A DNA stretch of 64,000 nucleotides from a candidate division FCPU426 bacterium (GCA_963847625.1 CAWKAR010000028.1:108834-172833), one strand, 5' to 3'; positions 5,341-64,000 are shown, numbered from the stretch's first letter. The notes: generated by a model not told the origin, from the sequence alone. A program made the numbers and translations.

Positions 5341-6392
5341 GCTGAATTCAACCAGTAAGTGCAACACCTTGACTAAAGACCTGCTCCGGCGTTTTGAAAC
5401 GAAGGCACTTGCGAGGACGATGGTTTAGGATCCGTTCCACGCGTCGTACATTCGCTGGGGTTATAGTAGCAAAATCCGTTTTCTTGGGATAGAAGCGACG
5501 AACAAGACCTGCAGTATTTTCAACACAACCTTTCTCCCAACTGTGGAAGGGCAAACAAAAGAATGAACGAGTGCCTGAAACACGATTCACCTGGAGATGT
5601 TCGACGTTTTCGGAGCCATTGTCGTATGTGATGGTACGGCGGAGGCCTTTTGAAATCCGAACCAACCGACGGTTGATTGCGGCTCTAGTGTGGAAAGCTG
5701 ATTTTTGAGGTAGCCAAGCCAGTTTCACCAGACGACTTTTGCGCTCGACCATAACCAGAAGTGAGGGTTTGCTTTTCCGGGAGATGATGGTGTCGGCCTC
5801 CCAGTGCCCGAATTGCTGTCTTGTTTCAACGATAGCTGGTCGTTGGGTAATGGGAGTACGTTGAGGAATATGGCTTTTGCGATGTTTTTGAGTGTGCCAA
5901 CGTCGCAAACGTTTTCGATGGGCCCGGGCTAGATGAGGAATGAGGTTTCGAGCTTCGCAGTAGATGAATTGATAGATGGCTTCATGGGAAACGGAAAGTT
6001 TTGGTTTCTCCCGGCGAAGAAAACCGGCAATTTGCTCGGGCGAGAGTCCACGAGGTATTTCTCGCAGTACTAAACGGCGAATCTCAGGATTTTTAAGCCT
6101 TAAATGAGTACGTGAAAGACGGTTTCGGTGTTCTGCACGCATGTGAGCTCTGGCGGGCAGGTAGCGGCAAGATCGTATAGGAGGGGCGTTGCGCTTCAGT
6201 TCTCGGGAAATGCTGGATACATCACGGCCCAGACGGCGTGCGATTTCCCGAAGGGAGAGGCCTTCAGCATTCCAAACTGAAATTTCTTCACGTTCGGCTA
6301 ACGACAGATGCTTGTAGGATGATTTCATAGCACTTAGGATAACCCCCGGGTTCTGCCGGGTCTAAGTGTTGCACTTCGTTATTGAACTGGGG
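5341..6392 (-). mobile_element. IS30-family insertion sequence (copy A)
   Basis: Imperfect 26-bp terminal IRs gctgaattcaaccagtaagtgcaaca (5341-5366) and tgttgcacttcgttattgaactgggg (6367-6392). 3-bp direct repeat AAT on both sides (5338-5340, 6393-6395). Confidence 0.9.
5348..6328 (-). CDS. IS30-family transposase
   Basis: N-terminal HTH (LSLREIARRLGRDVSSISRELKRN), SPEQI, GHWEADT, TYDNGSE, SWEKGCVEN and RPRKCL motifs of IS30 DDE transposases. Confidence 0.95.
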   Translation of the reverse strand: MKSSYKHLSLAEREEISVWNAEGLSLREIARRLGRDVSSISRELKRNAPPIRSCRYLPARAHMRAEHRNRLSRTHLRLKNPEIRRLVLREIPRGLSPEQIAGFLRREKPKLSVSHEAIYQFIYCEARNLIPHLARAHRKRLRRWHTQKHRKSHIPQRTPITQRPAIVETRQQFGHWEADTIISRKSKPSLLVMVERKSRLVKLAWLPQKSAFHTRAAINRRLVRISKGLRRTITYDNGSENVEHLQVNRVSGTRSFFCLPFHSWEKGCVENTAGLVRRFYPKKTDFATITPANVRRVERILNHRPRKCLRFKTPEQVFSQGVALTG

Positions 6393-7220: not shown

Positions 7221-8275
7221 CCCGAGTTCCATAAGTAAGTGCAACACTTAGTGTCTGAAGAAGGCCGCATGAATAGGATATGCGGCTATGAAAAAGAAAT
7301 ACAAGCATTTAAGCGTTGAAGAAAGAGATCATTTATCCGTCTTGAAAGGAAAGGGTCTTAGCCTTCGAGCCATTTCCCGCGCCTTGAAGAGGTCTCCTTC
7401 CACCCTCTCCAGGGAACTCAAGCGCAATGCTCCCCCTATCCGTTCTGGTTATTATCTTTCTCATCGAGCCCATCAACGGTATGTTGACCGCAACCAACAA
7501 CGAGCACGCCGTTTACGCCTGAAAACAAAACGAATTCGTGCCTACGTCCGTCGTCAATTGAAACGAGGCTGGTCACCAGAACTCATTTCAGGTCGATTAG
7601 GTCACCTACGGCCTAAGCAAACCATTGGTCCTGAAGCTATCTATCAGTGGGTTTACGCTGAAGCCACTGAGCTGATTCCTTGCCTAGTTCGACACCACCG
7701 GCGACGATTCTCATTTGGCCACAGCCGTAAGCACGCCAAAAACCATATCCCAGGCCGTGTTTCCATCGATAAGCGCTCCGAGATCGCCAATCAACGCAAG
7801 CAATTCGGCCATTGGGAAACCGACACCATGGTCTCTCGTCAGAGTAAAGTGGCTATGCGGGCTCTCGTCGAGCGTCAAAGCCGTTTTTCCAAGTTGGGAA
7901 AGCTCAAACGAAAGACCGCTCGCCAAATGAGTCATAGCCTCAACCGCGCTTTATGCCGCTTCCCTCAAGACGCCCGCTTGAGTCTGACCTATGACAACGG
8001 AACCGAAAACACCAACCACTTGGAAACCAACCACGTGCTTGGTACAAAATCCTTTTTCTGCGCCCCTTTCCACAGTTGGGAAAAAGGTACTGTGGAAAAT
8101 ACTATCGGTCTTGTCCGCCGCCATTTGCCTAAAAAGACTGATCTTGCTAAAGTGTCCTTCAAAAAATTCAGGGCCATAGAAAGATGGCTCAATAACAGAC
8201 CCAGGAAATGTTTGGGCTTTAAAACTCCGGCGGAAGTCTTCCGGCGAAGTGTTGCACTTACTCCGTGAATTCGGC
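7221..8275 (+). mobile_element. IS30-family insertion sequence (copy B)
   Basis: IRs cccgagttccataagtaagtgcaaca (7221-7246) and tgttgcacttactccgtgaattcggc (8250-8275), flanked by TTT on both sides. Confidence 0.9.
7288..8268 (+). CDS. IS30-family transposase (diverged from copy A)
   Basis: WSPELI, GHWETDT, TYDNGTE, SWEKGTVEN and NNRPRKCLGFKTP motifs. Confidence 0.95.
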   Translation: MKKKYKHLSVEERDHLSVLKGKGLSLRAISRALKRSPSTLSRELKRNAPPIRSGYYLSHRAHQRYVDRNQQRARRLRLKTKRIRAYVRRQLKRGWSPELISGRLGHLRPKQTIGPEAIYQWVYAEATELIPCLVRHHRRRFSFGHSRKHAKNHIPGRVSIDKRSEIANQRKQFGHWETDTMVSRQSKVAMRALVERQSRFSKLGKLKRKTARQMSHSLNRALCRFPQDARLSLTYDNGTENTNHLETNHVLGTKSFFCAPFHSWEKGTVENTIGLVRRHLPKKTDLAKVSFKKFRAIERWLNNRPRKCLGFKTPAEVFRRSVALTP

Positions 8276-48853: not shown

Positions 48854-48892
48854 AATAAAGCCCAGTCTTCCAAAGGAAGACTGGGCTTTATT
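48854..48892. terminator. Intrinsic terminator hairpin at the tRNA 3' end, possibly bidirectional
   Basis: Perfect 18-bp stem aataaagcccagtcttcc / ggaagactgggctttatt with a 3-nt loop, between convergent genes. Confidence 0.8.
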
Positions 48893-48965
48893 GGCTGGGA
48901 GACTAGGATTCGAACCTAGATATGCAGATCCAGAATCTGCTGTCCTACCATTAGACGATCTCCCA
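48892..48965 (-). tRNA. tRNA-Gln(CTG)
   Basis: TGGGAGATCGTCTAATGGTAGGACAGCAGATT-CTG-GATCTGCATATCTAGGTTCGAATCCTAGTCTCCCAGCCA: cloverleaf, GTTCGAA T-loop, encoded CCA. Confidence 0.96.
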
Positions 48966-49305: not shown

Positions 49306-50817
49306 TTATCCAAGGTCCTCCCCCTTTGGCAATCGGTCGGCCGATGAAACTTTTGGGATATCCTTCTTGAGCATGCCGACAAACCTCAGCAATCGCACGA
49401 TGCAGCGGCCTTTTCCCAGGATTTCAACCAGTTCGAACAAGTTGGGGCTAGCGGTTCGCCCCGTGATGGCCAACCGCATGGGGTGGACATAATCTCCGAA
49501 TTTACGGCCGCTTTCGGTAGCCGCATTTCGAAGTTTTTCCTCCAGGGTCATGGCATTGAAATCGACGGTTTCCTCCAGGATGAAAAGGGCCTGTTCCAGG
49601 ACTTTGATGGTTTCGGGTTTTCGCCACTTGGCCAATCCCTCGGCATCATAGATATGGACTTCCCCCAGAAAATACGTGATTTGGTCCCCTACTTCCGATA
49701 TGGTTTTTAAGCTGTTTTTCACGGTTCCGATCATGCGTTTTAACGCGCCACCTCCGAAACGCATGAAATTCTCGTTGATGGCATCGGCATCCCAAAGGGT
49801 TTCCAGACAAAGTTGGTATATTCTTTCGTCGTCCGCAGCCCGTATGTATTGGCCATTGAGCCACTGCAATTTATCGTAATCGAAGCAGGCCGCGCTTTTC
49901 ACCACCCGTTCGAGGCTGAACTTATGGACCAAGTCATCCTTGGAGAATATCTCTGTTTTTCCGTCGAGGGACCAACCCAGGAGGGCAAGATAATTCAGCA
50001 TGGCCTCAGGCAGGTAACCCTGGCGTTTGAACTCCCCGATCGAGTTTGCGCCGTGACGTTTGGAAAGGGGCAAGCGGTCTTGGCCTAAAATAAGGGGTAT
50101 ATGGGCGAAGATGGGCGGTTCCAGCCCCAAGGCCCGGTAAAGAAGGATTTGCTTGGGGGTATTGGATAAATGGTCGTCACCCCGGATGACATGGGAAATT
50201 TTCATGAGGGCGTCGTCCACCGTGGCCACGAAATTATAGGTGGGCTCCCCGTCGCTTCTCACCAGGATGAAGTCGTCCATTTCGGAATTTTCAATGGTCA
50301 CCTCCCCCCGAACCAAATCGGAGAAGGCAATTCGCCCCTCGGGTATTTTGAGCCTGACTGAATAGGGATGGCGGGATTTTCGATGCTCTTCCACATCCGC
50401 CGGCGAAAGGTTACGGCACTTCCCGGAATACCGGTAGCTTTTGCCGAGGGCTTGGATATCTGCCCTTTCGGCCTCCAATTCCTTGGTGGTGCAATAACAG
50501 GGATAAGCGGCGCCAGATTGGAGGAGTTTCTTCAGTTGTTGCCGGTATTGAGGGGCCCGGTCGGTTTGGCGGTAGGGCCCATAAGGCCCGCCAATGGAGG
50601 GTCCTTCGTCCCAATCCAAGCCGAGCCATTGCAGGTTCCGGATGATGCTCTCTTCATATTCCGTCTTGGACCTTTCGCGGTCGGTATCCTCGATTCGAAG
50701 GATAAACTTACCCCCATGGTGACGGGCGAAAAGCCAGTTAAACAAGGCGGTCCGGGCTCCTCCCACATGGAGATAACCGGTAGGGCTCGGCGCGAATCTC
50801 ACGCGAACAGTTGACAT
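49306..50817 (-). CDS. gltX: Glutamate--tRNA ligase
   Basis: VRVRFAPSPTGYLHVGGARTALFN (HIGH), LRIEDTD, HVIRGDDH and LSKRHG (KMSKS). Confidence 0.97.
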   Translation of the reverse strand: MSTVRVRFAPSPTGYLHVGGARTALFNWLFARHHGGKFILRIEDTDRERSKTEYEESIIRNLQWLGLDWDEGPSIGGPYGPYRQTDRAPQYRQQLKKLLQSGAAYPCYCTTKELEAERADIQALGKSYRYSGKCRNLSPADVEEHRKSRHPYSVRLKIPEGRIAFSDLVRGEVTIENSEMDDFILVRSDGEPTYNFVATVDDALMKISHVIRGDDHLSNTPKQILLYRALGLEPPIFAHIPLILGQDRLPLSKRHGANSIGEFKRQGYLPEAMLNYLALLGWSLDGKTEIFSKDDLVHKFSLERVVKSAACFDYDKLQWLNGQYIRAADDERIYQLCLETLWDADAINENFMRFGGGALKRMIGTVKNSLKTISEVGDQITYFLGEVHIYDAEGLAKWRKPETIKVLEQALFILEETVDFNAMTLEEKLRNAATESGRKFGDYVHPMRLAITGRTASPNLFELVEILGKGRCIVRLLRFVGMLKKDIPKVSSADRLPKGEDLG

Positions 50818-51186
50818 TTTTTTCCTTTAAAGCTTGGTTTGGATCCTTTTTTGGCTAAAGAAAAACGCCTGCGTTTCCTTGAGCCCGCTCCCATCTGGAA
50901 GAAAATCCCCAGCATTAATTCGGTGGTTCAAAAATCTTCACGGCAAAACCTTTGAGTCTGCGCGGGGCAGGCCACAAAGATAGCGTATAAAATAACGTTT
51001 TGAAAAACCTTCCTACCAAAAAAATTCCCGGGCTTTGTTTTTTTCCCAGAAAACAAACGAAAATGTTATCCTAATGGAGTTGCAGAACCCAGTCATTTTA
51101 CCAGTTACTCAATGAGAATATGATTTGTCCGAATGGCCTTTTCCATTCCAAAAGGCGCACATTCCGGAAAGGGGAGCTTTACTAAC

Positions 51187-51579
51187 ATGAGAAAAATCCA
51201 TAAGCCTGAAAATCCTCGCAATAAACGCACCAACCGTCGGATAATCATGGTTAAATCCATCAAAGGTCTTATTCTGGATTCTTTTAGTGATGGAAAGCCT
51301 TTCCGCGTCCAGCTAATCAATGTCAGCTCCACCGGTTGCCAGATCTATTCCAACAAGGTTTTGGACAACAACTTTTCCATACGCCTGGAACTGGGTTCCC
51401 TGGATAAAAGCCATAATGTGAATTATGACGGCAAGGTCGTTTGGGTCCGAAAAAACCCAATGAAATCCATGGGCCGGTATGTCTATGGGATCAATTTCGA
51501 AAACATGACCCCGGAACAAATCAAGTTCCTGGAAACGAACTACTCCTTGAGCATCACTCCATCTAATCCTTTAATATAA
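51187..51579 (+). CDS. PilZ-domain protein
   Basis: RTNRR (RxxxR) and NVSSTG (N/DxSxxG) motifs, GKVVW and YGINF. Start at ATG 51187 or 51133. Confidence 0.8.
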   Translation: MRKIHKPENPRNKRTNRRIIMVKSIKGLILDSFSDGKPFRVQLINVSSTGCQIYSNKVLDNNFSIRLELGSLDKSHNVNYDGKVVWVRKNPMKSMGRYVYGINFENMTPEQIKFLETNYSLSITPSNPLI

Positions 51580-51722: not shown

Positions 51723-52865
51723 TTAATTCTGTGGAATGATGGCTTTTTTCAAGCTGGCTAAAACCTTTTTGTGCAAATCCTCGGCATCGACCGCGTTCGT
51801 TAAGGCTTTTTGAAATTGAGGATTGATCTCCAAAGCCTTTTTAAATTCCTTCAAAGCTTTGTTCACCTCGAATCGGCACAATATCAAGTAAGCGACCCCC
51901 AGATGGTGGTGGAGATCCGCGTAATGGGGATACTCTTCGATTACTTTCGCGAGTTTGTTGATGTATTGTTCCGTCATTTGCAAATCGATACCTTCGGTTC
52001 CATAAAGCAACGTTAACGTGAAAAAGAAGATAATTTCATCCCCGATCCGCGGGACATAGCGTGGCCGGACCTCCAGGAAAGACTGGAATGCGAGCGAATA
52101 CTTCCGGTTCTTCAGGTAATCCATGGATATCATGAAGGCGCGATTGCGGACCTTGGGGTTCAGTGTGGCCGCGGTTTCAACCTCGGCTTTTGTCCTTTCC
52201 ACCAACTCCTGGATTTTCCCGTCGTTAAGTTCTCCAGAAGATTGGGTGAGATAACCGACACAGGAAGTTCCCAGGCGTAAACGAGCGTCCGCGTAGCGGG
52301 GATTGATCTGGAGGGCCTGCAAATAACATTGAACGGCCTCGTCTATTTCCCTTTTGTAAAGGTGGACGTTGCCCAGATGGTAATAAATATCGGCGAAAGA
52401 GGGCCCCAATTCCTTGGCCTTGTTCAAAATAGCCAGGGCCCCATCGTAATCCTCCAGAAGGGTCAAGGTGATGCCGTAACTCTTGACCGCCTGTAGGTGT
52501 TGTGGATCCAATTCCATGGCTTTCAGGAATCTTTGGCGGGCATCCTCGTAAAAACCATTGGAAAGGAAGATGACCCCGATTTTCCAACAGGCATCCGCCG
52601 AGGGTTTTTCGCCTATTTTTTTATTTAAACGGAAGATGGATTCAAGCTCAACCGAGCGGATCCGGTGGGTTTCCTGGAGGAACTGTTTGAGGCCCCCTTC
52701 ATCCATGCCTTCCGGAAGGTCGAATTCTCTCTGGGAAATGGCCCTTCCAGCAAGCTGGACGATGGAGGTTAAGCGGTTTTTCCCCGTCACGGGGGAGGTT
52801 TCAACTGTAAAATTTTTCCCCTCAATTTCAATGAGGGAATTCAGCGACATTTTTTCCATATCCAT
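51723..52865 (-). CDS. TPR-repeat protein
   Basis: ADIYYHLGNV, ALQINPRYADA, YADLHHHLGVAY and KALEINPQF TPR signatures. Confidence 0.85.
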   Translation of the reverse strand: MDMEKMSLNSLIEIEGKNFTVETSPVTGKNRLTSIVQLAGRAISQREFDLPEGMDEGGLKQFLQETHRIRSVELESIFRLNKKIGEKPSADACWKIGVIFLSNGFYEDARQRFLKAMELDPQHLQAVKSYGITLTLLEDYDGALAILNKAKELGPSFADIYYHLGNVHLYKREIDEAVQCYLQALQINPRYADARLRLGTSCVGYLTQSSGELNDGKIQELVERTKAEVETAATLNPKVRNRAFMISMDYLKNRKYSLAFQSFLEVRPRYVPRIGDEIIFFFTLTLLYGTEGIDLQMTEQYINKLAKVIEEYPHYADLHHHLGVAYLILCRFEVNKALKEFKKALEINPQFQKALTNAVDAEDLHKKVLASLKKAIIPQN

Positions 52866-53123: not shown

Positions 53124-53486
53124 TTAGTTCTCCCCGAAACCTCGTTTGACAGCCGTTTCCACGTTGGGAAATGCTTTCAAGATGGTGTTGAATTCCAGCA
53201 ACTCGAACACTTCTGAAACCTCCGGATTCATCCCGGATAAAATCAAATCGCCTTTTTGGCTTCGGATGCGTTTGATCTCGCTGACAAAAATACCCCAACC
53301 GGCGCTGGAAATGTAATTCACGTCCTTCAGATCCACCACCAGCTTAAATTTCTTGTCGTTGAGGACCGAGAGGAATTTTTTCTCGAATTCCGGCGCGGTC
53401 GTGGTGTCAATGAATCCCTTGACGGAGAGAAGAGTGATACTTTTATTTTTCGGGTGCTCGGATACGCTGATAGATATATTTTCCAT
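53124..53486 (-). CDS. STAS anti-sigma-factor antagonist (RsbV/SpoIIAA family)
   Basis: GFIDTTTAPEF and VVDLKDVNYISSAG with the phosphoacceptor Ser; 120 aa. Confidence 0.92.
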   Translation of the reverse strand: MENISISVSEHPKNKSITLLSVKGFIDTTTAPEFEKKFLSVLNDKKFKLVVDLKDVNYISSAGWGIFVSEIKRIRSQKGDLILSGMNPEVSEVFELLEFNTILKAFPNVETAVKRGFGEN

Positions 53487-53536
53487 TCTTCCTCCAAAGT
53501 GAAGGGGCCAAACGAGTGTTTATTATCCCCGGGTTT

Positions 53537-55978
53537 TTATACTGTGTCAACCTCGCTCAAGGCGAATGCCTTTCTAAGTTTCACAGTGCTCAAATTTTTC
53601 CTCTTTAAAAACTCATAGATCAAGATGGGCTCAATCTTCATGGGCGGTTTCTTGCTTTTTCGTAGTGTTTCGGAAATGCGCCTGGGGCTGTATTCGGGGT
53701 TCTTCGCGAGGATGGCGGTCACCGCTTCTTTTTGCGGCTGAGACAATTCCCGCAGAGGAATCCGGTTCTTGGGAGGGACGGGCCTCAAACCCGCGTTCCC
53801 TTTCCGGCGCATGATTTTCAGGTAGCGGTAATAGGCCTGGGTGGAAATGTTCATCCGCCTGCAGGCCTCCGCCACGGAGAGCTTTTCCTTTTTCACGAGG
53901 TCCAGGAGTTTCCTCCTGAAATGGAAAACCGCGTTCTCAGCCTTCATTTTTTCCTTGATGGCCACCACCGTGATGTCGTCGTGCTGTTCCGCCCCCTTGG
54001 TGAACTGGGCGATGGCCTCATTGAGCTTCTCCACGAACTCCTGGGGGGTTAAGTGAGCGTTGGCCTTGATGACGTCATTGAGCCTGGCTTCCCCGAACTG
54101 TTCTTTCTTGAGGTTCATGGCCTCCGTGATGCCGTCGGTATAGATCACCAGGATATCGTTCTTTTGCAAGCTGACTTTCTGGGGGGCCATGTTTTTTTCA
54201 AACATCTCTTTTTCCGGCAGGTCGATCCCCACGGGAAAGCCCTTGGGTTTGAGGTAATAGAGTTCCTTGCTGCCCCCCCGGAATAGGATCATCGGATTAT
54301 GCCCCGCGCTGGCGAAATTAATGGTCCGGTTTCTCGAATCCAGGATGATATAAAACATCGTGACGAACATTCCCTTTTTCATGTCCGAGGTGACGTGATT
54401 GTTGACTTTGGCGAGAACATTCGACGCGGATTTGTTGTTTCGCGCTTCCAAACGCATCGCCGTCCGGATCATAGTCATGACCATGGAACCCGGAACTCCC
54501 TTGCCTGAAACGTCCGCCACCACGATCCCCAGGGTGGTCGGATCCACCCAGAAAAAGTCGTAATAATCGCCCCCGACCTCCTTGGCGGCACGGTAGGTGG
54601 CCCCGATTTCATAACCCTCAATCTGGGGGAATTCGGCTGGAAGCAGGGTATGCTGGATTTCCTGCGCCACTTGCATCTCTTTTTGCATTCTTTCCTGCTC
54701 CATCATCCCTTTCTGGGAATCCTGGATGCGGCTGGTCATATCATTGAAGATATTGGCCAGTTGACCGAATTCGTCCTGGCTGTCCAAATTAATCCGCGCG
54801 TCCAAATTCCCGGTCGACATGGCGTGAACGCCTTCCAGGATCTTCCGGAAAGGCCGGATGACGATGCGGGACAGGAAATAAAGGCCGGCAATGCTGATCA
54901 GGGACATCCAAAAGATGAGCCTCCGGAAATCGGATTTTACCGCGCTGGACAAAGCCTCGACGGCCCGGTCGCTTACCCCCGTGTGGGCCTCACCCACCCA
55001 TTTGCCACGGAAAAAGATGGGTGAGGTGTAGTCAGTGACGGTGCCGTGCGGAGTGGAAACTTGGAAGGTCCGGATGCCAGTGGTCTTTACCATCTTTGTA
55101 CCGGGAGGCGGCTGGTAAATTTTAAAGAGCTGGTTCAAATCGGAATGGGACAGGTACCTGCCGTCCTCCCCCACGATAAAAAGATAATCCAGGACCTTAA
55201 ATTGGTCCTGGGATACCACGCGGTGGATCATGCGATCTAATTCCAGGTCGTTCTTCCCGATCACGGCCGGGCCCGACTCGGAAGCGATCGTCTCGATGAT
55301 CAGGTTCACTTTCTCGGTCTGTTGGCGGGCGACGAAGGATGCCTGCTTGTAGCTTAAAAAGAAAAAGGTTGAGAGGACTAGGACGGTCACCAACAGTGCC
55401 GATCCGACGGTGAATTTGGCGGAAATGGGCACCGCCCCCTGCCGCAGGCCCAATTCCTTCGGGGGAGCCTTGGAAAGCTTTCGATACAGGGTCATTTCGT
55501 TGCGGTCCCCGTAGGACCGGTAAGTGACCCGGTCCACGACTTTTCTGATGAGCCAGATCCCCAGCCCCCCCTTTTTCCCGATATCCACGTAATGTTCCAG
55601 GTCCGGGTCCTTCACCGAGCCGAAGTCGAAGGCTTTTCCATGGTCGATGATTTTGACCCTGATGTCGTAAAGTCCGATGCCGACCTCCAACTCGATCTTG
55701 CCGTTGCGGATGTTGGTGTAGGCATGCCGGATGATGTTGGTGCAAGCCTCATCCACGGCCAAAATGACGGAGGTGGCCTCCTTGGTGGTGCACCCCGCAG
55801 AGTCGCAGACCCGTTGAATGAAATTCTTAATGTTCAGCAGTTCGATTTCCTTCGCCGGCGCTTCCAGCCGCAGGATGTGCCTTTTTGTCTGGAAGGAGAA
55901 AGAGGAAAAAAGTTCCTTGAAATAAGGGGGTATTTTCAAGGAAGAATAAAGTTTCATCAAATAAGGGGGTGTTTTCAT
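53537..55978 (-). CDS. Hybrid of RsbW-like kinase, 2-TM sensor, HAMP, SpoIIE/RsbU PP2C phosphatase and HTH
   Basis: LAVDEACTNIIRHAY, DHGKAFD, GGLGIWLI (HATPase_c_2); two TMs; HAMP DEFGQLANIFNDM; EVGGDYYD, ADVSGKG, YTDGITEA, DDIT (PP2C); LSVAEACRRMNISTQAYYRY (HTH). ATG 55978 overlaps the upstream stop (ATGA). Confidence 0.9.
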   Translation of the reverse strand: MKTPPYLMKLYSSLKIPPYFKELFSSFSFQTKRHILRLEAPAKEIELLNIKNFIQRVCDSAGCTTKEATSVILAVDEACTNIIRHAYTNIRNGKIELEVGIGLYDIRVKIIDHGKAFDFGSVKDPDLEHYVDIGKKGGLGIWLIRKVVDRVTYRSYGDRNEMTLYRKLSKAPPKELGLRQGAVPISAKFTVGSALLVTVLVLSTFFFLSYKQASFVARQQTEKVNLIIETIASESGPAVIGKNDLELDRMIHRVVSQDQFKVLDYLFIVGEDGRYLSHSDLNQLFKIYQPPPGTKMVKTTGIRTFQVSTPHGTVTDYTSPIFFRGKWVGEAHTGVSDRAVEALSSAVKSDFRRLIFWMSLISIAGLYFLSRIVIRPFRKILEGVHAMSTGNLDARINLDSQDEFGQLANIFNDMTSRIQDSQKGMMEQERMQKEMQVAQEIQHTLLPAEFPQIEGYEIGATYRAAKEVGGDYYDFFWVDPTTLGIVVADVSGKGVPGSMVMTMIRTAMRLEARNNKSASNVLAKVNNHVTSDMKKGMFVTMFYIILDSRNRTINFASAGHNPMILFRGGSKELYYLKPKGFPVGIDLPEKEMFEKNMAPQKVSLQKNDILVIYTDGITEAMNLKKEQFGEARLNDVIKANAHLTPQEFVEKLNEAIAQFTKGAEQHDDITVVAIKEKMKAENAVFHFRRKLLDLVKKEKLSVAEACRRMNISTQAYYRYLKIMRRKGNAGLRPVPPKNRIPLRELSQPQKEAVTAILAKNPEYSPRRISETLRKSKKPPMKIEPILIYEFLKRKNLSTVKLRKAFALSEVDTV

Positions 55979-57636
55979 GGGTGGTTGCTCCCTCCCCCGC
56001 CGCTCAAGGGTTTCTCGGTCGTTTTGGATTCCTTCAGCCTTTTCCTGGCTTCCTCGAGGTTTCTTTGGATGAGGAAGTTCTTGGGACTTTTCGCGAGTAC
56101 CTTTTCCCAATCGGTGACCGCTTCCTGGTATTTACCCGCGAGGTAGGCCTCCACGCCCTTGGCGTAAAGGGTAGTAAGTTCCTTGGTCATGGATTCCAAG
56201 GGTTGATAATGGCTTTGGGCGTCATGATAAAGGAACTTGACATCCCGGTACCCGGGATCAATCTGGTACACGGCTTGCAGGTTATCCACGGCAGTGGTGT
56301 AATCCTCCTGGCTGTACGCCTCCACCCCCCGGACGTAATTCGTGGAAAGCATCATGTCCTTGTCCACCATCTTCAGGAGCGTCTGGGCGTCGGGATTTCC
56401 GGGATCCAGGGCGAGCACCTTCCCCAGAAGCGGCAGGGCCCTGTCGTAATTCCCATTCTTGATTTCCTGGCGGATCACTCCCAATTGGCCCGCCACCAGG
56501 GCGTTCCTGCGTCTTTCGAGGTTCCGGATGGCTCCGGGAGCCTCCTCATCGTCCGGAAACTCGTTCAAGACGTTTTTCCAAGCCCGGATGGCCGGGCTGA
56601 AGTCGTCGCTCTTGGCATAACTCCGGGCCACCCATTTCAAAAGGTCCATTCTTTGGGCCTGCAAGGGGTCCCGGTAAGTCCCGAATGAATAGCTCAGGGA
56701 AAACCGGTGGAGAACCCCCAAGTCCCTTTGGTTGTAGGCATAATCGAATTCAAAGCCATAAAGCCGCAGGCCGGCTCCCGCGGTGGGGCTGGTTCCATCA
56801 AACCCCCCGCGCCCATAAATTACGTTATTAAATCCGTACTCCACTCCAGCCTTGAGAAGATTTTCACCCCCCTGGACCATTTCCCCTTCGACTGTCAGCC
56901 AGAGGGAATTCCCTTCCGAGGGCTGGAAAAAATAAGAGAGGGCCGGCCTGTAAACCCTGACCGGTTGATCCGCTGTCTGGAACAATTTGACCTGGGGTTG
57001 TAGGAGATTGGAGGCGGATAACCCAAGCGCCAAGTTACGGAGCCCGATCCGGCGGAAATCCGAGGGGGTTTCCGAAAGGCGGTATAAAAGCCCGACATCA
57101 ACCCCCACCCCGCTGCCTTGGTAGGAATCCATTTGCTGGCGCAGGTACTTTACGGCGGCCCCGAAATCGAGGCCCCCCGGCAAACGGAAGCCGCCTCCCA
57201 CCATTCCTTCAAACTGCTGTGAAGAAAAGGTCGAAATCGGCAGGACGTTGTTCTGGGTCTTCAGGATATCCGAGGTCCCCAATTGGATGAAGGCGGCTCC
57301 TAAACCGGCGTGGCCGCTCACCGGGTGGACATAACCGACAGCATCGTAAGAGGTATCCAGGAAAAGGGGCGCGTGGAGTGAAAGGAGTTGATAGTTCTTT
57401 AAAGTTGCCAAAGCCGCCGGGTTTGCGAAGAAACTATTGCCGTCCCCTGTCACAGCCACCGACGTGTCACCCATACCCAGGGATCTGGCGGAGCCGCCGA
57501 GTTCGAAAGGCAACATGATCCCCCCCGAATCCGTCGTTTGTCCAGAAACCATCGAAGGCGACGGGATCGCCCCAAAAACGCAGAAACACAGGATTCTAAT
57601 GGTACGAATGAAAATCGGACGTATCGATGTCGTCAT
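55975..57636 (-). CDS. PorV/PorQ (UPF0164)-family outer-membrane protein fused to TPRs
   Basis: GGSARSLGMGDTSVA..DGNSFFANPAALA N-terminal signature, beta-barrel pattern ending FDYAY..LGVLHRFSLSYSFG, then helical TPRs. Confidence 0.85.
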   Translation of the reverse strand: MTTSIRPIFIRTIRILCFCVFGAIPSPSMVSGQTTDSGGIMLPFELGGSARSLGMGDTSVAVTGDGNSFFANPAALATLKNYQLLSLHAPLFLDTSYDAVGYVHPVSGHAGLGAAFIQLGTSDILKTQNNVLPISTFSSQQFEGMVGGGFRLPGGLDFGAAVKYLRQQMDSYQGSGVGVDVGLLYRLSETPSDFRRIGLRNLALGLSASNLLQPQVKLFQTADQPVRVYRPALSYFFQPSEGNSLWLTVEGEMVQGGENLLKAGVEYGFNNVIYGRGGFDGTSPTAGAGLRLYGFEFDYAYNQRDLGVLHRFSLSYSFGTYRDPLQAQRMDLLKWVARSYAKSDDFSPAIRAWKNVLNEFPDDEEAPGAIRNLERRRNALVAGQLGVIRQEIKNGNYDRALPLLGKVLALDPGNPDAQTLLKMVDKDMMLSTNYVRGVEAYSQEDYTTAVDNLQAVYQIDPGYRDVKFLYHDAQSHYQPLESMTKELTTLYAKGVEAYLAGKYQEAVTDWEKVLAKSPKNFLIQRNLEEARKRLKESKTTEKPLSGGGGSNHP

Positions 57637-60600
57637 TATTTCACCACCGCTATTTTCAGCAGGTATTTGTTCCCGTTGACGCTGAGTTGGGCGTAGTAAA
57701 CCCCGTTGAGCACATAAGAACCCCTTCCGTTACGCCCGTCCCAGGAAATTCTTTGAAGGCCGGCCGCGAGGACTTGGTTTTCCAGCAAAGTGGCAACTTT
57801 AGCTCCCATGACATCATAAAGTTGCAGAGACACGTTTGTGGGGACGGTCAAGTTGAACTCGATAGTCGTACTCTCCAACCCGGCCCGGAAGGGATTGGGA
57901 TAGTTTCCGTAAGTGGACGCGACATCCGGGGGAAGGAAAGCCATGGTCTCGGATCGGATGGGAAATCCGGTGGAATCGCCGATAGTGGTGACACCGGCCA
58001 CGGTGGCGGGAGCCACGGGGTCTTCAGCGTTGAAGGATCCAGGTCCGTCAAGCGAAAGCTTGACACTCTTGGCCGTGGGTTGGAGGGCCATATCCACCCC
58101 CACGGTGACAGGAAGGGAGGATAAAGCTGGTACCGTGAGGGCGGTTCCCAAGGTCACTAAATCGGAAGTGGAACCAGCGACATTGAGCGATGTAGTTGTC
58201 CCTCCCCCCGCCGTATACCAAAGGTTCCGGAAAGCGGCTCCGAAGGCCACCGGATTGTTATTTGCATCCTCCGCGTGAAAGACCAGGCCCATGATGGAAA
58301 TGGGATCACTCCCTTGTTTCACGGTGAAGTCGAGAATGAGAACGGCGATGCCGGTTTGTCCGCCTGTCACGGTGGAAAGCGTGGGTGAGAGGTGAGTCAC
58401 ATTCAAGATAAGGCTTCGGCTTCCGGCTAACACAGAGACGGGATCGCTTATGCCCGTTTTACCGTTGTTCAAGTCTCTTGCCGTAACGGTTTGGCTGCTA
58501 CTGGGCGTATCCAGCACGATGTTGTTATTCGTGGCAGTTCCCTGGTTGAGAACAACGCTTCCTTCCGCGGGCGAATTCGGGTCGCTGACGGTGAACGTCA
58601 AGGGATCGGCGGCCCCGGTGAAAACGTTGAAATAAGCGTCCACGGCGTTCACCGTGGCCGCGAAAGGATATCCCGCCTGGACATTGCTGGGACTGCCGAT
58701 ATGGCCCGCGGGATCGGTGGAGGGTTTTCCCGGATCTGCCGTTTCACCCGGCAATAACACTTGGAGTTGAGCGTAGGAAGTCGCCGCAACCGTGACGGTT
58801 AAACCAGCCGGGGTCAAGGATGTGGAAGAAGCCGTGAGGGCCCAGGCTCCGGCTTTATAGTCACGGTAATTGATCGTGGCCGCCGAGGAACCGGGTGAGA
58901 TGGTCAAGGCCGAAATCGTGGTGCTTCCCGATGAATCCAGGAAATAGTATTCCCCGCTCGAGTTGGAATAAAGATTAACCGTTATGACTCCCATTAAGGT
59001 GGCTGGTTGGCCCAATGAGTTTTGGACTTCGACCACAAGAGGTCCTCCGTTTACACCCGCGATGAAAGGCGTCAATGCCGGTGAAGGGGTGAGAAATACA
59101 ATTTGAGTTGGAGGCAGTGGGGTGGATGTCGGTGTATTCGTGGGGGTATTCGTATTTGTTGGCGTGTTCGTCGGCGTAAAGGTAGGCGTATGCGTGGGTG
59201 TGTTCGTGGGTGTGTTCGTCGGTGTGTTGGTGGGAGTATTGGTGGGTGTATTCGTTGGTGTATTTGTTGGGGTATTAGTAGGTGTATTCGTCGGAGTACT
59301 CGTGGGGGTATTCGTGGGCGTGGACGTCGGCGTTAAGGTCGGATTTGCCACAGTGATCACCGCTCCACCCACCGGCACCCCGCTTACCTGCACCGCCTGC
59401 CCGGATACCCCATCTGTTCCCTGCAAACTCTGCAAGTTCGTCGAGTAGACGCCCGTCGCCGAAGAACCTGAGAAATTATAGGTCACCAGATAATTCCCGG
59501 AGGTCAATCCCGCACCCAGTGAATCGTTGAAGTTCAATACCACCTGGCCGCCCGACCAGCTGTTTGAACTGGATATAACCGTCGTTCCTTTCAGCAGGCT
59601 CGCCGTGATCATCGTAACCGAACCGCCCACCGGCGTTACCACCGCTATTACAATGGAATTCAGGCTCACTGTATCCGGACTGGGGTTTGTCACCTTGAAC
59701 TGCAACACCGGCACCCCAATGGCACCCGGTAATTGTGTCGAATTCGGCGGGGTTCCCGCCACCGTGATCACCGACAATACCGGCGGTGTCGAAGTAGGCG
59801 TGGGTGTCGCGGTGGGTGTGTTCGTGGGTGTGTTCGTCGGTGTGTTGGTGGGAGTATTGGTGGGTGTATTCGTTGGTGTATTTGTTGGGGTATTAGTAGG
59901 TGTATTCGTCGGAGTACTCGTGGGGGTATTCGTGGGCGTGGACGTCGGCGTTAAGGTCGGATTTGCCACAGTGATCACCGCTCCACCCACCGGCACCCCG
60001 CTTACCTGCACCGCCTGCCCGGATACCCCATCTGTTCCCTGCAAACTCTGCAAGTTCGTCGAGTAGACGCCCGTCGCCGAAGAACCTGAGAAATTATAGG
60101 TCACCAGATAATTCCCGGAGGTCAATCCCGCACCCAGTGAATCGTTGAAGTTCAATACCACCTGGCCGCCCGACCAGCTGTTTGAACTGGATATAACCGT
60201 CGTTCCTTTCAGCAGGCTCGCCGTGATCATCGTAACCGAACCGCCCACCGGCGTTACCACCGCTATTACAATGGAATTCAGGCTCACTGTATCCGGACTG
60301 GGGTTTGTCACCTTGAACTGCAACACCGGCACCCCAATGGCACCCGGTAATTGTGTCGAATTCGGCGGGGTTCCCGCCACCGTGATCACCGACAATACCG
60401 GCGGTGTCGAAGTAGGCGTGGGTGTCGCGGTGGGTGTGTTCGTGGGTGTGTTCGTCGGTGTGTTGGTGGGAGTATTGGTGGGTGTATTCGTTGGTGTATT
60501 TGTTGGGGTATTAGTAGGTGTATTCGTCGGAGTACTCGTGGGGGTATTCGTGGGCGTGGACGTCGGCGTTAAGGTCGGATTTGCCACAGTGATCACCGCT

Positions 60601-63600
60601 CCACCCACCGGCACCCCGCTTACCTGCACCGCCTGCCCGGATACCCCATCTGTTCCCTGCAAACTCTGCAAGTTCGTCGAGTAGACGCCCGTCGCCGAAG
60701 AACCTGAGAAATTATAGGTCACCAGATAATTCCCGGAGGTCAATCCCGCACCCAGTGAATCGTTGAAGTTCAATACCACCTGGCCGCCCGACCAGCTGTT
60801 TGAACTGGATATAACCGTCGTTCCTTTCAGCAGGCTCGCCGTGATCATCGTAACCGAACCGCCCACCGGCGTTACCACCGCTATTACAATGGAATTCAGG
60901 CTCACTGTATCCGGACTGGGGTTTGTCACCTTGAACTGCAACACCGGCACCCCAATGGCACCCGGTAATTGTGTCGAATTCGGCGGGGTTCCCGCCACCG
61001 TGATCACCGACAATACCGGCGGTGTCGAAGTAGGCGTGGGTGTCGCGGTGGGTGTGTTCGTGGGTGTGTTCGTCGGTGTGTTGGTGGGAGTATTGGTGGG
61101 TGTATTCGTTGGTGTATTTGTTGGGGTATTAGTAGGTGTATTCGTCGGAGTACTCGTGGGGGTATTCGTGGGCGTGGACGTCGGCGTTAAGGTCGGATTT
61201 GCCACAGTGATCACCGCTCCACCCACCGGCACCCCGCTTACCTGCACCGCCTGCCCGGATACCCCATCTGTTCCCTGCAAACTCTGCAAGTTCGTCGAGT
61301 AGACGCCCGTCGCCGAAGAACCTGAGAAATTATAGGTCACCAGATAATTCCCGGAGGTCAATCCCGCACCCAGTGAATCGTTGAAGTTCAATACCACCTG
61401 GCCGCCCGACCAGCTGTTTGAACTGGATATAACCGTCGTTCCTTTCAGCAGGCTCGCCGTGATCATCGTAACCGAACCGCCCACCGGCGTTACCACCGCT
61501 ATTACAATGGAATTCAGGCTCACTGTATCCGGACTGGGGTTTGTCACCTTGAACTGCAACACCGGCACCCCAATGGCACCCGGTAATTGTGTCGAATTCG
61601 GCGGGGTTCCCGCCACCGTGATCACCGACAATACCGGCGGTGTCGAAGTAGGCGTGGGTGTCGCGGTGGGTGTGTTCGTGGGTGTGTTCGTCGGTGTGTT
61701 GGTGGGAGTATTGGTGGGTGTATTCGTTGGTGTATTTGTTGGGGTATTAAGTAGGTGTATTCGTCGGAGTACTCGTGGGGGTATTCGTGGGCGTGGACGT
61801 CGGCGTTAAGGTCGGATTTGCCACAGTGATCACCGCTCCACCCACCGGCACCCCGCTTACCTGCACCGCCTGCCCGGATACCCCATCTGTTCCCTGCAAA
61901 CTCTGCAAGTTCGTCGAGTAGACGCCCGTCGCCGAAGAACCTGAGAAATTATAGGTCACCAGATAATTCCCGGAGGTCGATCCCGCACCCAGTGAATCGT
62001 TGAAGTTCAATACCACCTGGCCGCCCGACCAGCTGTTTGAACTGGATATAACCGTCGTTCCTTTCAGCAGGCTCGCCGTGATCATCGTAACCGAACCGCC
62101 CACCGGCGTTACCACCGCTATTACAATGGAATTCAGGCTCACTGTATCCGGACTGGGGTTTGTCACCTTGAACTGCAACACCGGCACCCCAATGGCACCC
62201 GGTAATTGTGTCGAATTCGGCGGGGTTCCCGCCACCGTGATCACCGACAATACCGGCGGTGTCGAAGTAGGCGTGGGTGTCGCGGTGGGTGTGTTCGTGG
62301 GTGTGTTCGTCGGTGTGTTGGTGGGAGTATTGGTGGGTGTATTCGTTGGTGTATTTGTTGGGGTATTAGTAGGTGTATTCGTCGGAGTACTCGTGGGGGT
62401 ATTCGTGGGCGTGGACGTCGGCGTTAAGGTCGGATTTGCCACAGTGATCACCGCTCCACCCACCGGCACCCCGCTTACCTGCACCGCCTGCCCGGATACC
62501 CCATCTGTTCCCTGCAAACTCTGCAAGTTCGTCGAGTAGACGCCCGTCAGCTAGAAGGCCTGAGAAATTATAGGTCACCAGATAATTCCCGGAGGTCAAT
62601 CCCGCACCCAGTGAATCGTTGAAGTTCAATACCACCTGGCCGCCCGACCAGCTGTTTGAACTGGATATAACCGTCGTTCCTTTCAGCAGGCTCGCCGTGA
62701 TCATCGTAACCGAACCGCCCACCGGCGTTACCACCGCTATTACAATGGAATTCAGGCTCACTGTATCCGGACTGGGGTTTGTCACCTTGAACTGCAACAC
62801 CGGCACCCCAATGGCACCCGGTAATTGTGTCGAATTCGGCGGGGTTCCCGCCACCGTGATCACCGACAATACCGGCGGTGTCGAAGTAGGCGTGGGTGTC
62901 GCGGTGGGTGTGTTCGTGGGTGTGTTCGTCGGTGTGTTGGTGGGAGTATTGGTGGGTGTATTCGTTGGTGTATTTGTTGGGGTATTAGTAGGTGTATTCG
63001 TCGGAGTACTCGTGGGGGTATTCGTGGGCGTGGACGTCGGCGTTAAGGTCGGATTTGCCACAGTGATCACCGCTCCACCCACCGGCACCCCGCTTACCTG
63101 CACCGCCTGCCCGGATACCCCATCTGTTCCCTGCAAACTCTGCAAGTTCGTCGAGTAGACGCCCGTCGCCGAAGAACCTGAGAAATTATAGGTCACCAGA
63201 TAATTCCCGGAGGTCAATCCCGCACCCAGTGAATCGTTGAAGTTCAATACCACCTGGCCGCCCGACCAGCTGTTTGAACTGGATATAACCGTCGTTCCTT
63301 TCAGCAGGCTCGCCGTGATCATCGTAACCGAACCGCCCACCGGCGTTACCACCGCTATTACAATGGAATTCAGGCTCACTGTATCCGGACTGGGGTTTGT
63401 CACCTTGAACTGCAACACCGGCACCCCAATGGCACCCGGTAATTGTGTCGAATTCGGCGGGGTTCCCGCCACCGTGATCACCGACAATACCGGCGGTGTC
63501 GAAGTAGGCGTGGGTGTCGCGGTGGGTGTGTTCGTGGGTGTGTTCGTCGGTGTGTTCGTGGGCGGATGTATTGGTGGGTGTATTCGTTGGTGTATTTGTT

Positions 63601-64000
63601 GGGGTATTAGTAGGTGTATTCGTCGGAGTACTCGTGGGGGTATTCGTGGGCGTGGACGTCGGCGTTAAGGTCGGATTTGCCACAGTGATCACCGCTCCAC
63701 CCGCGGGCACCCCGCTTACCTGCACCGCCTCCCCGGATACCCCATCTGTTCCCTGCAAACTCTGCAAGTTCGTCGAGTAGACGCCCGTCGCCGAAGAACC
63801 TGAGAAATTATAGGTCACCAGATAATTCCCGGAGGTCAATCCCGCACCCAGTGAATCGTTGAAGTTCAATACCACCTGGCCGCCCGACCAGCTGTTTGAA
63901 CTGGATATAACCGTCGTTCCTTTCAGCAGGCTCGCCGTGATCATCGTAACCGAACCGCCCACCGGCGTTACCACCGCTATTACAATGGAATTCAGGCTCA
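57636..64000 (-). CDS. Giant repetitive surface protein (206-aa Ig-like + PTNT repeats) with FlgD-Ig/T9SS-like CTD; 5' end outside the window, three apparent frameshifts
   Basis: ORFs 57636..61631, 61747..62526, 62366..63487 and 63186..63974 encode the same repeat. C-terminus [32 protein letters not shown]. The stop overlaps the PorV-like start (TAATG). Confidence 0.88.
59194..64000. repeat. Near-identical 618-bp tandem repeat, about 7.8 copies visible
   Basis: The same landmark recurs at 59527, 60145, 60763, 61381, 62000, 62619, 63237 and 63859 (spacings 618, 618, 618, 619, 619, 618, 622). Confidence 0.97.

Follow-up and report, generated by a model that had tools for sequence, protein, structure and literature searches.

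A conserved locus pairing a TPR-tailed PorV-family barrel with a kinase/phosphatase sensor: a proposed variant of trans-envelope partner switching

Outer-membrane barrels of the PorV kind have a known, passive role as shuttles and anchors. In the PorA-PorY system of Porphyromonas gingivalis, the C-terminal sorting domain (CTD) of a type IX secretion system (T9SS) cargo is itself described as the ligand that an inner-membrane sensor binds in the periplasm (PMC12152298), and switches in which a kinase and a PP2C phosphatase act on a small partner protein are described for SypE/SypA of Vibrio fischeri (PMC3610818) and SiaABCD of Pseudomonas aeruginosa (PMC7278518). Here we describe a locus in which parts of these kinds stand side by side. 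The window analyzed is a stretch of 64,000 nucleotides from a candidate division FCPU426 bacterium (GCA_963847625.1 CAWKAR010000028.1:108834-172833), and its positions 53,124 to 64,000 carry, all on the minus strand, the genes for a giant T9SS-type cargo, a PorV-family barrel with a tetratricopeptide repeat (TPR) arm, an inner-membrane sensor and a STAS protein:

57636 to 64000, minus strand: giant T9SS-type cargo gene, with its 5′ end beyond the contig; repeats, unique domains and a C-terminal CTD
57639 to 57923, minus strand: the CTD, FlgD-Ig/type A-like, of a distinct subfamily (NYPNPF...WDGRNG...VLNGVY...KIAVVK)
55975 to 57636, minus strand: PorV/PorQ-family barrel, 553 residues; barrel at residues ~37-322, TPR arm at ~324-541
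53537 to 55978, minus strand: inner-membrane sensor, 813 residues; RsbW-type kinase 46-164, transmembrane (TM) segment ~190-208, sCache_3 217-342, TM ~355-373, HAMP 368-420, SpoIIE/PP2C 480-675, IS481-like helix-turn-helix (HTH) 687-800
53124 to 53486, minus strand: STAS anti-anti-sigma-type protein, 120 residues; YISSAG at 58-63, no HTH tail

Judged from sequence, the locus appears to be a conserved module that combines known parts into a variant of trans-envelope partner switching, for which the mechanism given here is a proposal. In the most likely reading, to which we give a probability of roughly one half, the barrel would hold the cargo by its CTD, the arm would modulate the sensor, and the sensor would set the phosphorylation of the STAS protein. 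Individual loci, genomes and contigs are cited below by our L, G and C numbers.

Conservation and joint loss of the barrel–sensor pair

Sensor orthologs, defined by a match at E<=1e-150, are present in 40/41 Calditrichota, 41/41 KSB1, 26/41 Zixibacteria and 12/41 Eisenbacteria genomes, and in 21/41 Latescibacterota/Krumholzibacteriia-labelled genomes (22/41 from the other centre locus); from the first two figures, the sensor is part of the core biology of Calditrichota and KSB1. We examined the loci of 37/39 new Calditrichota, 43/46 KSB1 and 20/25 new Zixibacteria matches, leaving out four (L185, L215, L242 and L243) with no scored kinase domain and taking upstream counts over loci with enough upstream DNA. 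A PorV-TPR gene lies directly upstream of the sensor in 145/149 scorable loci from six phylum samples (Calditrichota 36/36, KSB1 37/39, Zixibacteria 17/18, Eisenbacteria 12/12, Latescibacterota/Krumholzibacteriia-labelled 21/21, the window's own phylum 22/23). CTD cargo precedes the barrel in 34/34 Calditrichota, 35/37 KSB1, 18/18 Zixibacteria and 19/22 own-phylum loci, and STAS follows the sensor in 35/35, 34/36, 16/17 and 17/22, respectively. At other SpoIIE loci, a PorV barrel was found in 2/73, both adjoining Cache-HAMP-SpoIIE genes. A genome scan that overlaps the phylum samples placed PorV-TPR with 25/28 full-length HTH-bearing sensors (the misses being L086, L088 and L089), a metagenome scan yielded full-length orthologs at 6 of 80 loci, and homologous proteins carry the labels Ca. 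Firestonebacteria and Ca. Goldbacteria. The first-pass annotation, made from the window alone, had staked its proposed circuit on a gene order shared by relatives, and that order is indeed kept across the six samples.

The flanks are not the same in every phylum: gltX/PilZ stand here, some phyla have a ParA-like ATPase together with GGDEF and polysaccharide export genes, and others have aconitase or Obg. The barrel–sensor order is kept while the flanking genes change between phyla, and the barrel and the sensor module are very probably functionally coupled. An order that is simply inherited, with no functional link, would fit the conservation of the unrelated neighbours coaBC, udg and gltX within the family; those neighbours, however, change between phyla around an unchanged core, the barrel, cargo and Cache domain are lost jointly, and the paralogous split cassettes L097 and L049 again pair PorV-TPR with Cache-HAMP-SpoIIE. 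We regard that explanation as largely refuted and highly improbable.

A Cache domain (>=49 bits) is kept in 141/141 sensors that stand beside PorV-TPR. G013 (99% complete) encodes a sensor with a TM hairpin but no Cache, and G015 (82% complete) one with neither TM nor Cache; in both, the locus lacks cargo, barrel and STAS, udg abuts the sensor, and the genome has no full-length barrel ortholog. G019 (99% complete) is without barrel and sensor, both of which are present in two congeners. Within the family, barrel orthologs occur in 17/18 relatives with a Cache-bearing sensor and in 0/6 without. In Eisenbacteria the 12 genomes with the best barrel scores, and in the Krumholzibacteriia-labelled phylum the best 21, are precisely those that have the sensor; genomes without it score up to 357 and 352 bits, respectively, through a second paralog class that carriers have too.

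Several arrangements around the module were seen in passing. In the relatives L030, L033, L035 and L041, it is preceded by a block of coaBC, a subtilase whose CTD is closely related, a short PorV and udg; in this genome the block sits on another contig (C34:4023-9134). In split versions (L097, L049, L048, L054, L055), STAS and kinase are encoded by genes of their own, and Cache-HAMP-SpoIIE is preceded by PorV-TPR or by a soluble TPR protein; in L097, which is Spirochaetia-labelled, there is no SprA match at E<=1e-15.

Gene junctions, domains and neighbouring genes

The first-pass annotation had described one coupled operon, and the junctions it named are present. At TAATG (57636), the final A of the cargo stop TAA is the first A of the barrel-gene ATG; at ATGA (55978-55975), the sensor ATG shares bases with the barrel stop TGA; STAS starts at 53486, after a 50-bp gap from the end of the sensor stop (53537); and 258 bp beyond STAS follows a co-oriented TPR gene (52865-51723). 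Its domain calls also stand, with HATPase_c_2, sCache_3_2, HAMP, SpoIIE and STAS each above the Pfam cut-off and the barrel at 96.3 bits on the PorV-family model NF033709 (PorV_fam; cut-off 90). Family members repeat both overlaps (L026, 11496/11496 and 13157/13154; L030, 11245/11242 and 12933/12930; L036, 1651/1648 and 3276/3273). The overlaps are thus real, but the idea of a single operon is qualified by a promoter-like site at the sensor stop:

53522 to 53550, minus strand: candidate sigma-70-like promoter, TTGACA-17-GATAAT, across the final codons of the sensor and ahead of STAS; 11/12 matches
51723 to 52865, minus strand: cytoplasmic TPR protein, 380 residues, no TM segment; accompanies the module in several lineages
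51133 to 51579, plus strand: stand-alone, convergent PilZ-domain protein; position conserved within the family only

TTGACA occupies this position in 17/18 own-phylum loci viewed, the exception being L042, which is cut at a split gene, and the full pattern is found in 11. The promoter count is at chance level (4 versus 4.3), and the case for an internal promoter rests on the 11/12 match and on conservation; a terminator scan was also at chance (11 versus 13.0). The retention of the site in the phylum suggests that STAS and the following TPR gene are probably made independently too, besides any transcription they may share with the module.

The window ends, at position 64000, where contig C28 ends, and the cargo gene is therefore cut. 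It contains at least seven near-identical 618-bp units, each encoding a ~145-residue β-rich domain and a PT-rich linker; six units were measured, four of which are identical to one another. What had been called a giant CTD adhesin gene does end in a CTD but is not one intact open reading frame (ORF), the frame being open only over 57636-61805, with single-base frame changes in the array near 61750, 62550 and 63560. A cargo ortholog from the same genus is an intact 3065-residue ORF with a signal-peptide-like N terminus, and the breaks are probably assembly errors in a perfect repeat; four low-depth public DNA runs give no coverage at these places. Ortholog N termini look signal-peptide-like by eye; the window's own lies beyond the contig. 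The repeats have no Pfam match, and an Atlas search gave only leads, at 0.89-0.90, for the repeat domain. Plus-strand ORFs of 179 residues across the array were rejected as antisense shadows.

The cargo CTD scores 22.9 bits on FlgD_ig as a protein and 29.4 in the genome search (cut-off 27), has no TIGR04183 match in the NCBIfam hidden Markov model (HMM) scan, and resembles the PorU C terminus (E 1e-6). The genome holds 82 FlgD-like CTD matches and 16 PorV-family loci. An HMM built from distant-phylum operon CTDs only places the window CTD first among 118 genome matches, at 72 bits, with the next at 66 and 49; distant-phylum HMMs likewise put this barrel ahead of the other PorV paralogs in the genome (205 versus 150 bits) and rank this TPR arm first in the genome (153 versus 92 bits). 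Each of the three is therefore an ortholog and not just any family member.

The AlphaFold2 model of the barrel (pLDDT 92, 127 rows) shows 14 strands together with an N-terminal plug, and its helical arm begins at about residue 324. The structures closest to it are 8GL6_F and 6H3I_F, chains of T9SS translocon complexes that we take to be PorV, and the protein sequence falls far below the cut-offs for both the PorV equivalog NF033710 (30 versus 250 bits) and the PorQ equivalog. From the even number of strands, the C-terminal TPR arm is predicted to be periplasmic. PorV biology, the gene pairing and orthology together point to a putative CTD-binding shuttle at the surface. Elsewhere in the genome, many PorV paralogs (C49, C57, C6, C26, C13, C34; L142-L148) lie directly behind CTD or β-propeller cargo and bear fn3, OmpA, FlgD-like or TPR tails; this arrangement suggests one anchor barrel for each cargo. 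As to the secretion machinery, the SprA homolog here (2016 residues, E 4e-34) is below cut-off, and SprA homologs are found in 39/41 of the own-lineage sample and above cut-off in 8/10 distant carriers. PorU has no full-length match in this genome and is above cut-off in 2/5 genomes searched; GldM was not found in this genome and matched in 0/5, but the control gave no match either.

The sensor ends in an IS481-like HTH that the earlier annotation had missed (HTH_28 above cut-off; NF033577 at E 4e-14 but far below cut-off). A recent insertion of an insertion sequence was rejected as its source, the tail being in frame and kept across phyla. The catalytic motifs are retained among 166 orthologs (N-box 163, GGLG 163, DVSGKG 165, TDG 161, DDIT 161), with a strict GGDY pattern in 121/166, and the N-box Asn of this kinase is N81. 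The protein is the sole match in the genome for the HATPase and SpoIIE HMMs, and its best NCBIfam match is SiaA (NF038263), at 77 bits versus a cut-off of 700. The phospho-Ser motif is present in 130/130 STAS rows (some genomes entered twice), so that intact kinase and PP2C motifs accompany a phosphorylatable-type STAS, as in partner switching. The sensor start (window 55918-55978) has an imperfect ~39-nt duplication, and the protein is 13 residues longer than in relatives. In the lineage of L058-L060 and L262-L281, three STAS domains are fused onto the sensor, and another two STAS genes lie close by.

In other phyla STAS itself bears tails, and 90/102 long tails match the sensor HTH model. 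Four close STAS paralogs stand elsewhere in this genome as orphan genes (C61:22016, C23:29930, C45:6931 and C57:92674), and two more distant STAS genes (C29:86577 and C37:4768) are followed by PilZ-like genes, as judged by eye. There is no SigB/SigF-type sigma factor in the locus; the genome has four region-3 sigma factors, RpoD/RpoS-like by eye. No GGDEF was found among the locus genes scanned.

Among the remaining neighbours, the N-terminal ~90 residues of the 380-residue TPR protein gave nothing usable in an Atlas search. Downstream of the module, tRNA-Gln(CTG) (48892-48965) lies beside a GltX-like gene (49306-50817). Window 13859-48620 clusters further large secreted proteins, including four DUF7948/SBBP β-propellers, NHL-repeat and PT-rich proteins, several of them with FlgD-like CTDs. 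Two HTH_38/rve transposase genes in opposite orientation (5348-6328 and 7288-8268), presumably IS30-like, flank a short interval.

A proposed circuit and the explanations that compete with it

In the proposed circuit, the giant cargo would be exported through the genome's SprA-like translocon and its CTD handed to its own PorV paralog, which would hold it at the surface, as PorV biology and the gene pairing suggest. The TPR arm would contact the sensor Cache domain in the periplasm, and the state of the barrel (loaded or empty, or with cargo engaged) would pass through TM2-HAMP and tip the sensor towards its PP2C or towards its RsbW-type kinase activity. By analogy with SypE/SypA and SiaABC, this balance would set Ser phosphorylation of STAS and probably of the four close STAS paralogs. 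Candidate outputs are transcription, via the IS481-like HTH that the sensor has, as does STAS in other phyla, and control of cyclic di-GMP (c-di-GMP)/exopolysaccharide.

The contact between arm and sensor, which the first-pass annotation had also proposed, received weak support. A complex prediction of the TPR arm with the Cache domain passed the mark, but with a weak score of 0.40 (runs 0.31, 0.53 and 0.40; best control 0.00), a contact agreement of at least 59% and a partner pLDDT of at least 76. The mark is reached by 116/157 solved complexes and 2/215 mismatches, and calibration passes with scores <=0.60 comprise only 18 solved pairs and both mismatches. We know of no solved complex of the TPR-arm/Cache kind, and no search was made for one. 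Coevolution between arm and Cache (mean-field direct coupling analysis, 166 paired rows, reduced alphabet) gave a top z of 6.5, inside the 5.1-7.3 obtained with within-group shuffles, and did not exceed the cytoplasmic controls; the test is underpowered and uninformative. We hold direct TPR–Cache signalling to be an even bet.

A number of observations weigh against the circuit. The arm, at ~220 residues, may be rather short to span a periplasm; by the calibration, a pass as weak as this one is more often wrong than right unless the contact is likely beforehand; and the sensor Cache has a fold like that of CitA, DcuS and other small-molecule sensors. In the sensor tree, G013 and G015 group together as sisters (100/99, on a single long branch), and their losses therefore count as about one event; the presence counts run across kin, and the barrel HMM included operon members. 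The sensors of L088, whose genome is without a full PorV-TPR ortholog, of L089 and of the second copies L227 and L229 keep their Cache although no barrel adjoins them; L045, L046 and also L076 have barrel and sensor but neither cargo nor STAS. STAS, finally, seems to have its own promoter.

Some of these observations would be expected if the genes were co-regulated without contact, with the Cache responding to a small molecule or to a cue from the envelope, the sensor controlling cargo display or expression, and the TPR arm binding another partner such as translocon parts, a chaperone or peptidoglycan enzymes. The ligand-binding sensors matched by the Cache fold, the Cache kept without a barrel in L088 and the lack of a nearby SpoIIE gene at other PorV paralogs of the genome with fn3, OmpA or TPR tails are consistent with such an arrangement, as is the proposal, in the account of Treponema pallidum available in PMC8407342, that TPR-tailed 14-strand barrels contact a transporter. 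Co-regulation is nevertheless rather unlikely: barrel and sensor remain adjacent where cargo and STAS are gone (L045, L046, L076), the Cache is lost along with the barrel (G013, G015), and the TPR–Cache model passed, if weakly.

The same loci bear on a monitor of the PorA-PorY kind, a precedent not considered in the earlier interpretation, in which the periplasmic cargo CTD would bind the Cache, the barrel would remove the CTD, and the sensor would read export flux, with the TPR arm only an escort. The P. gingivalis pathway (PMC12152298) provides the model; the operon CTD forms a conserved, distinct subfamily, and cargo and Cache are lost together in G013 and G015. Against it, L045, L046 and L076 have no cargo gene and yet retain barrel and Cache-bearing sensor, and we consider the monitor improbable.

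A wider version of the proposed circuit can be put forward only tentatively: a T9SS shuttle barrel would act as an outer-membrane receptor whose TPR arm docks on Cache and reports whether the giant cargo is loaded or engaged, with the transposase-derived HTH as a sigma-free output, near-universal in Calditrichota and KSB1, in a lineage that may reuse PorV barrels for pairs of extracytoplasmic function (ECF) sigma and anti-sigma factors. If a PorV barrel does signal inward, T9SS components outside Bacteroidota would act as surface receptors; trans-envelope signalling would gain a further route, and a Cache domain would have a protein as its ligand. As the TPR arm, Cache, kinase and STAS domains are soluble, the idea is directly testable in vitro.

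PorV paralogs also occur beside ECF genes. At three loci here (C22:62388-66813, C22:75736-78338 and C27:60993-64179; L139, L140), an ECF sigma factor accompanies an anti-sigma-like protein, anchored in the membrane and with a FlgD/CTD-like domain at its end, and a PorV paralog stands alongside, in two cases with a TPR tail. Among such loci in the family (L364-L393), the ECF gene is found in 29/30 and a PorV within 1.5 kb in 12/30. The label "anti-sigma" is suggested by position and topology, and these loci are possibly a second PorV-linked type of signalling.

Comparison with described systems

Each part of the module has a precedent, and the combination, which the first-pass annotation had thought new, was not found described in open-access PMC and bioRxiv texts, supplements aside. 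The PorA-PorY-PorX-SigP pathway shares the link between T9SS cargo and an inner-membrane sensor; as presented in the relevant passages of PMC12152298, it uses a histidine kinase with the CTD as ligand, and has no dedicated barrel or partner switch. The T. pallidum proteins TP0548, TP0859 and TP0865 share a 14-strand barrel and a presumed periplasmic, helical TPR-motif C terminus; the corresponding part of PMC8407342 treats them as FadL-like transporters and reports no link to a cargo or a sensor.

On the cytoplasmic side, SypE shares an N-terminal serine kinase, a C-terminal PP2C and a STAS substrate, by the sections of PMC3610818 that treat them, whereas the present sensor has a TM-Cache-TM-HAMP input and no SypE/HsbR-type central receiver domain, is membrane-bound, carries an HTH tail and stands among T9SS genes. 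SiaABCD shares a membrane PP2C, a kinase and a small switch protein (PMC7278518); here, in contrast, the kinase is fused, the STAS motif is of the Ser type, the locus has no cyclase, and there is an outer-membrane partner. The GGDEF and exopolysaccharide genes that follow in some Zixibacteria-type loci are a further likeness to SiaABCD.

On the outer-membrane side, cargo that has a type B CTD and cognate PorP/SprF shuttles (PMC12618676) shares the linkage of a cargo gene to its own shuttle barrel; in the present locus, the CTD is type A-like, the barrel is of the PorV family with a periplasmic arm, and a sensor lies downstream. The PorV shuttle of the T9SS, to judge from the pertinent sections of PMC5562754, shares the 14-strand barrel, N-terminal plug, CTD cargo and SprA-bearing genome. 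The barrel described here differs from it in its predicted periplasmic C-terminal TPR arm, in being one of 16 paralogs, and in apparently serving a single cargo.

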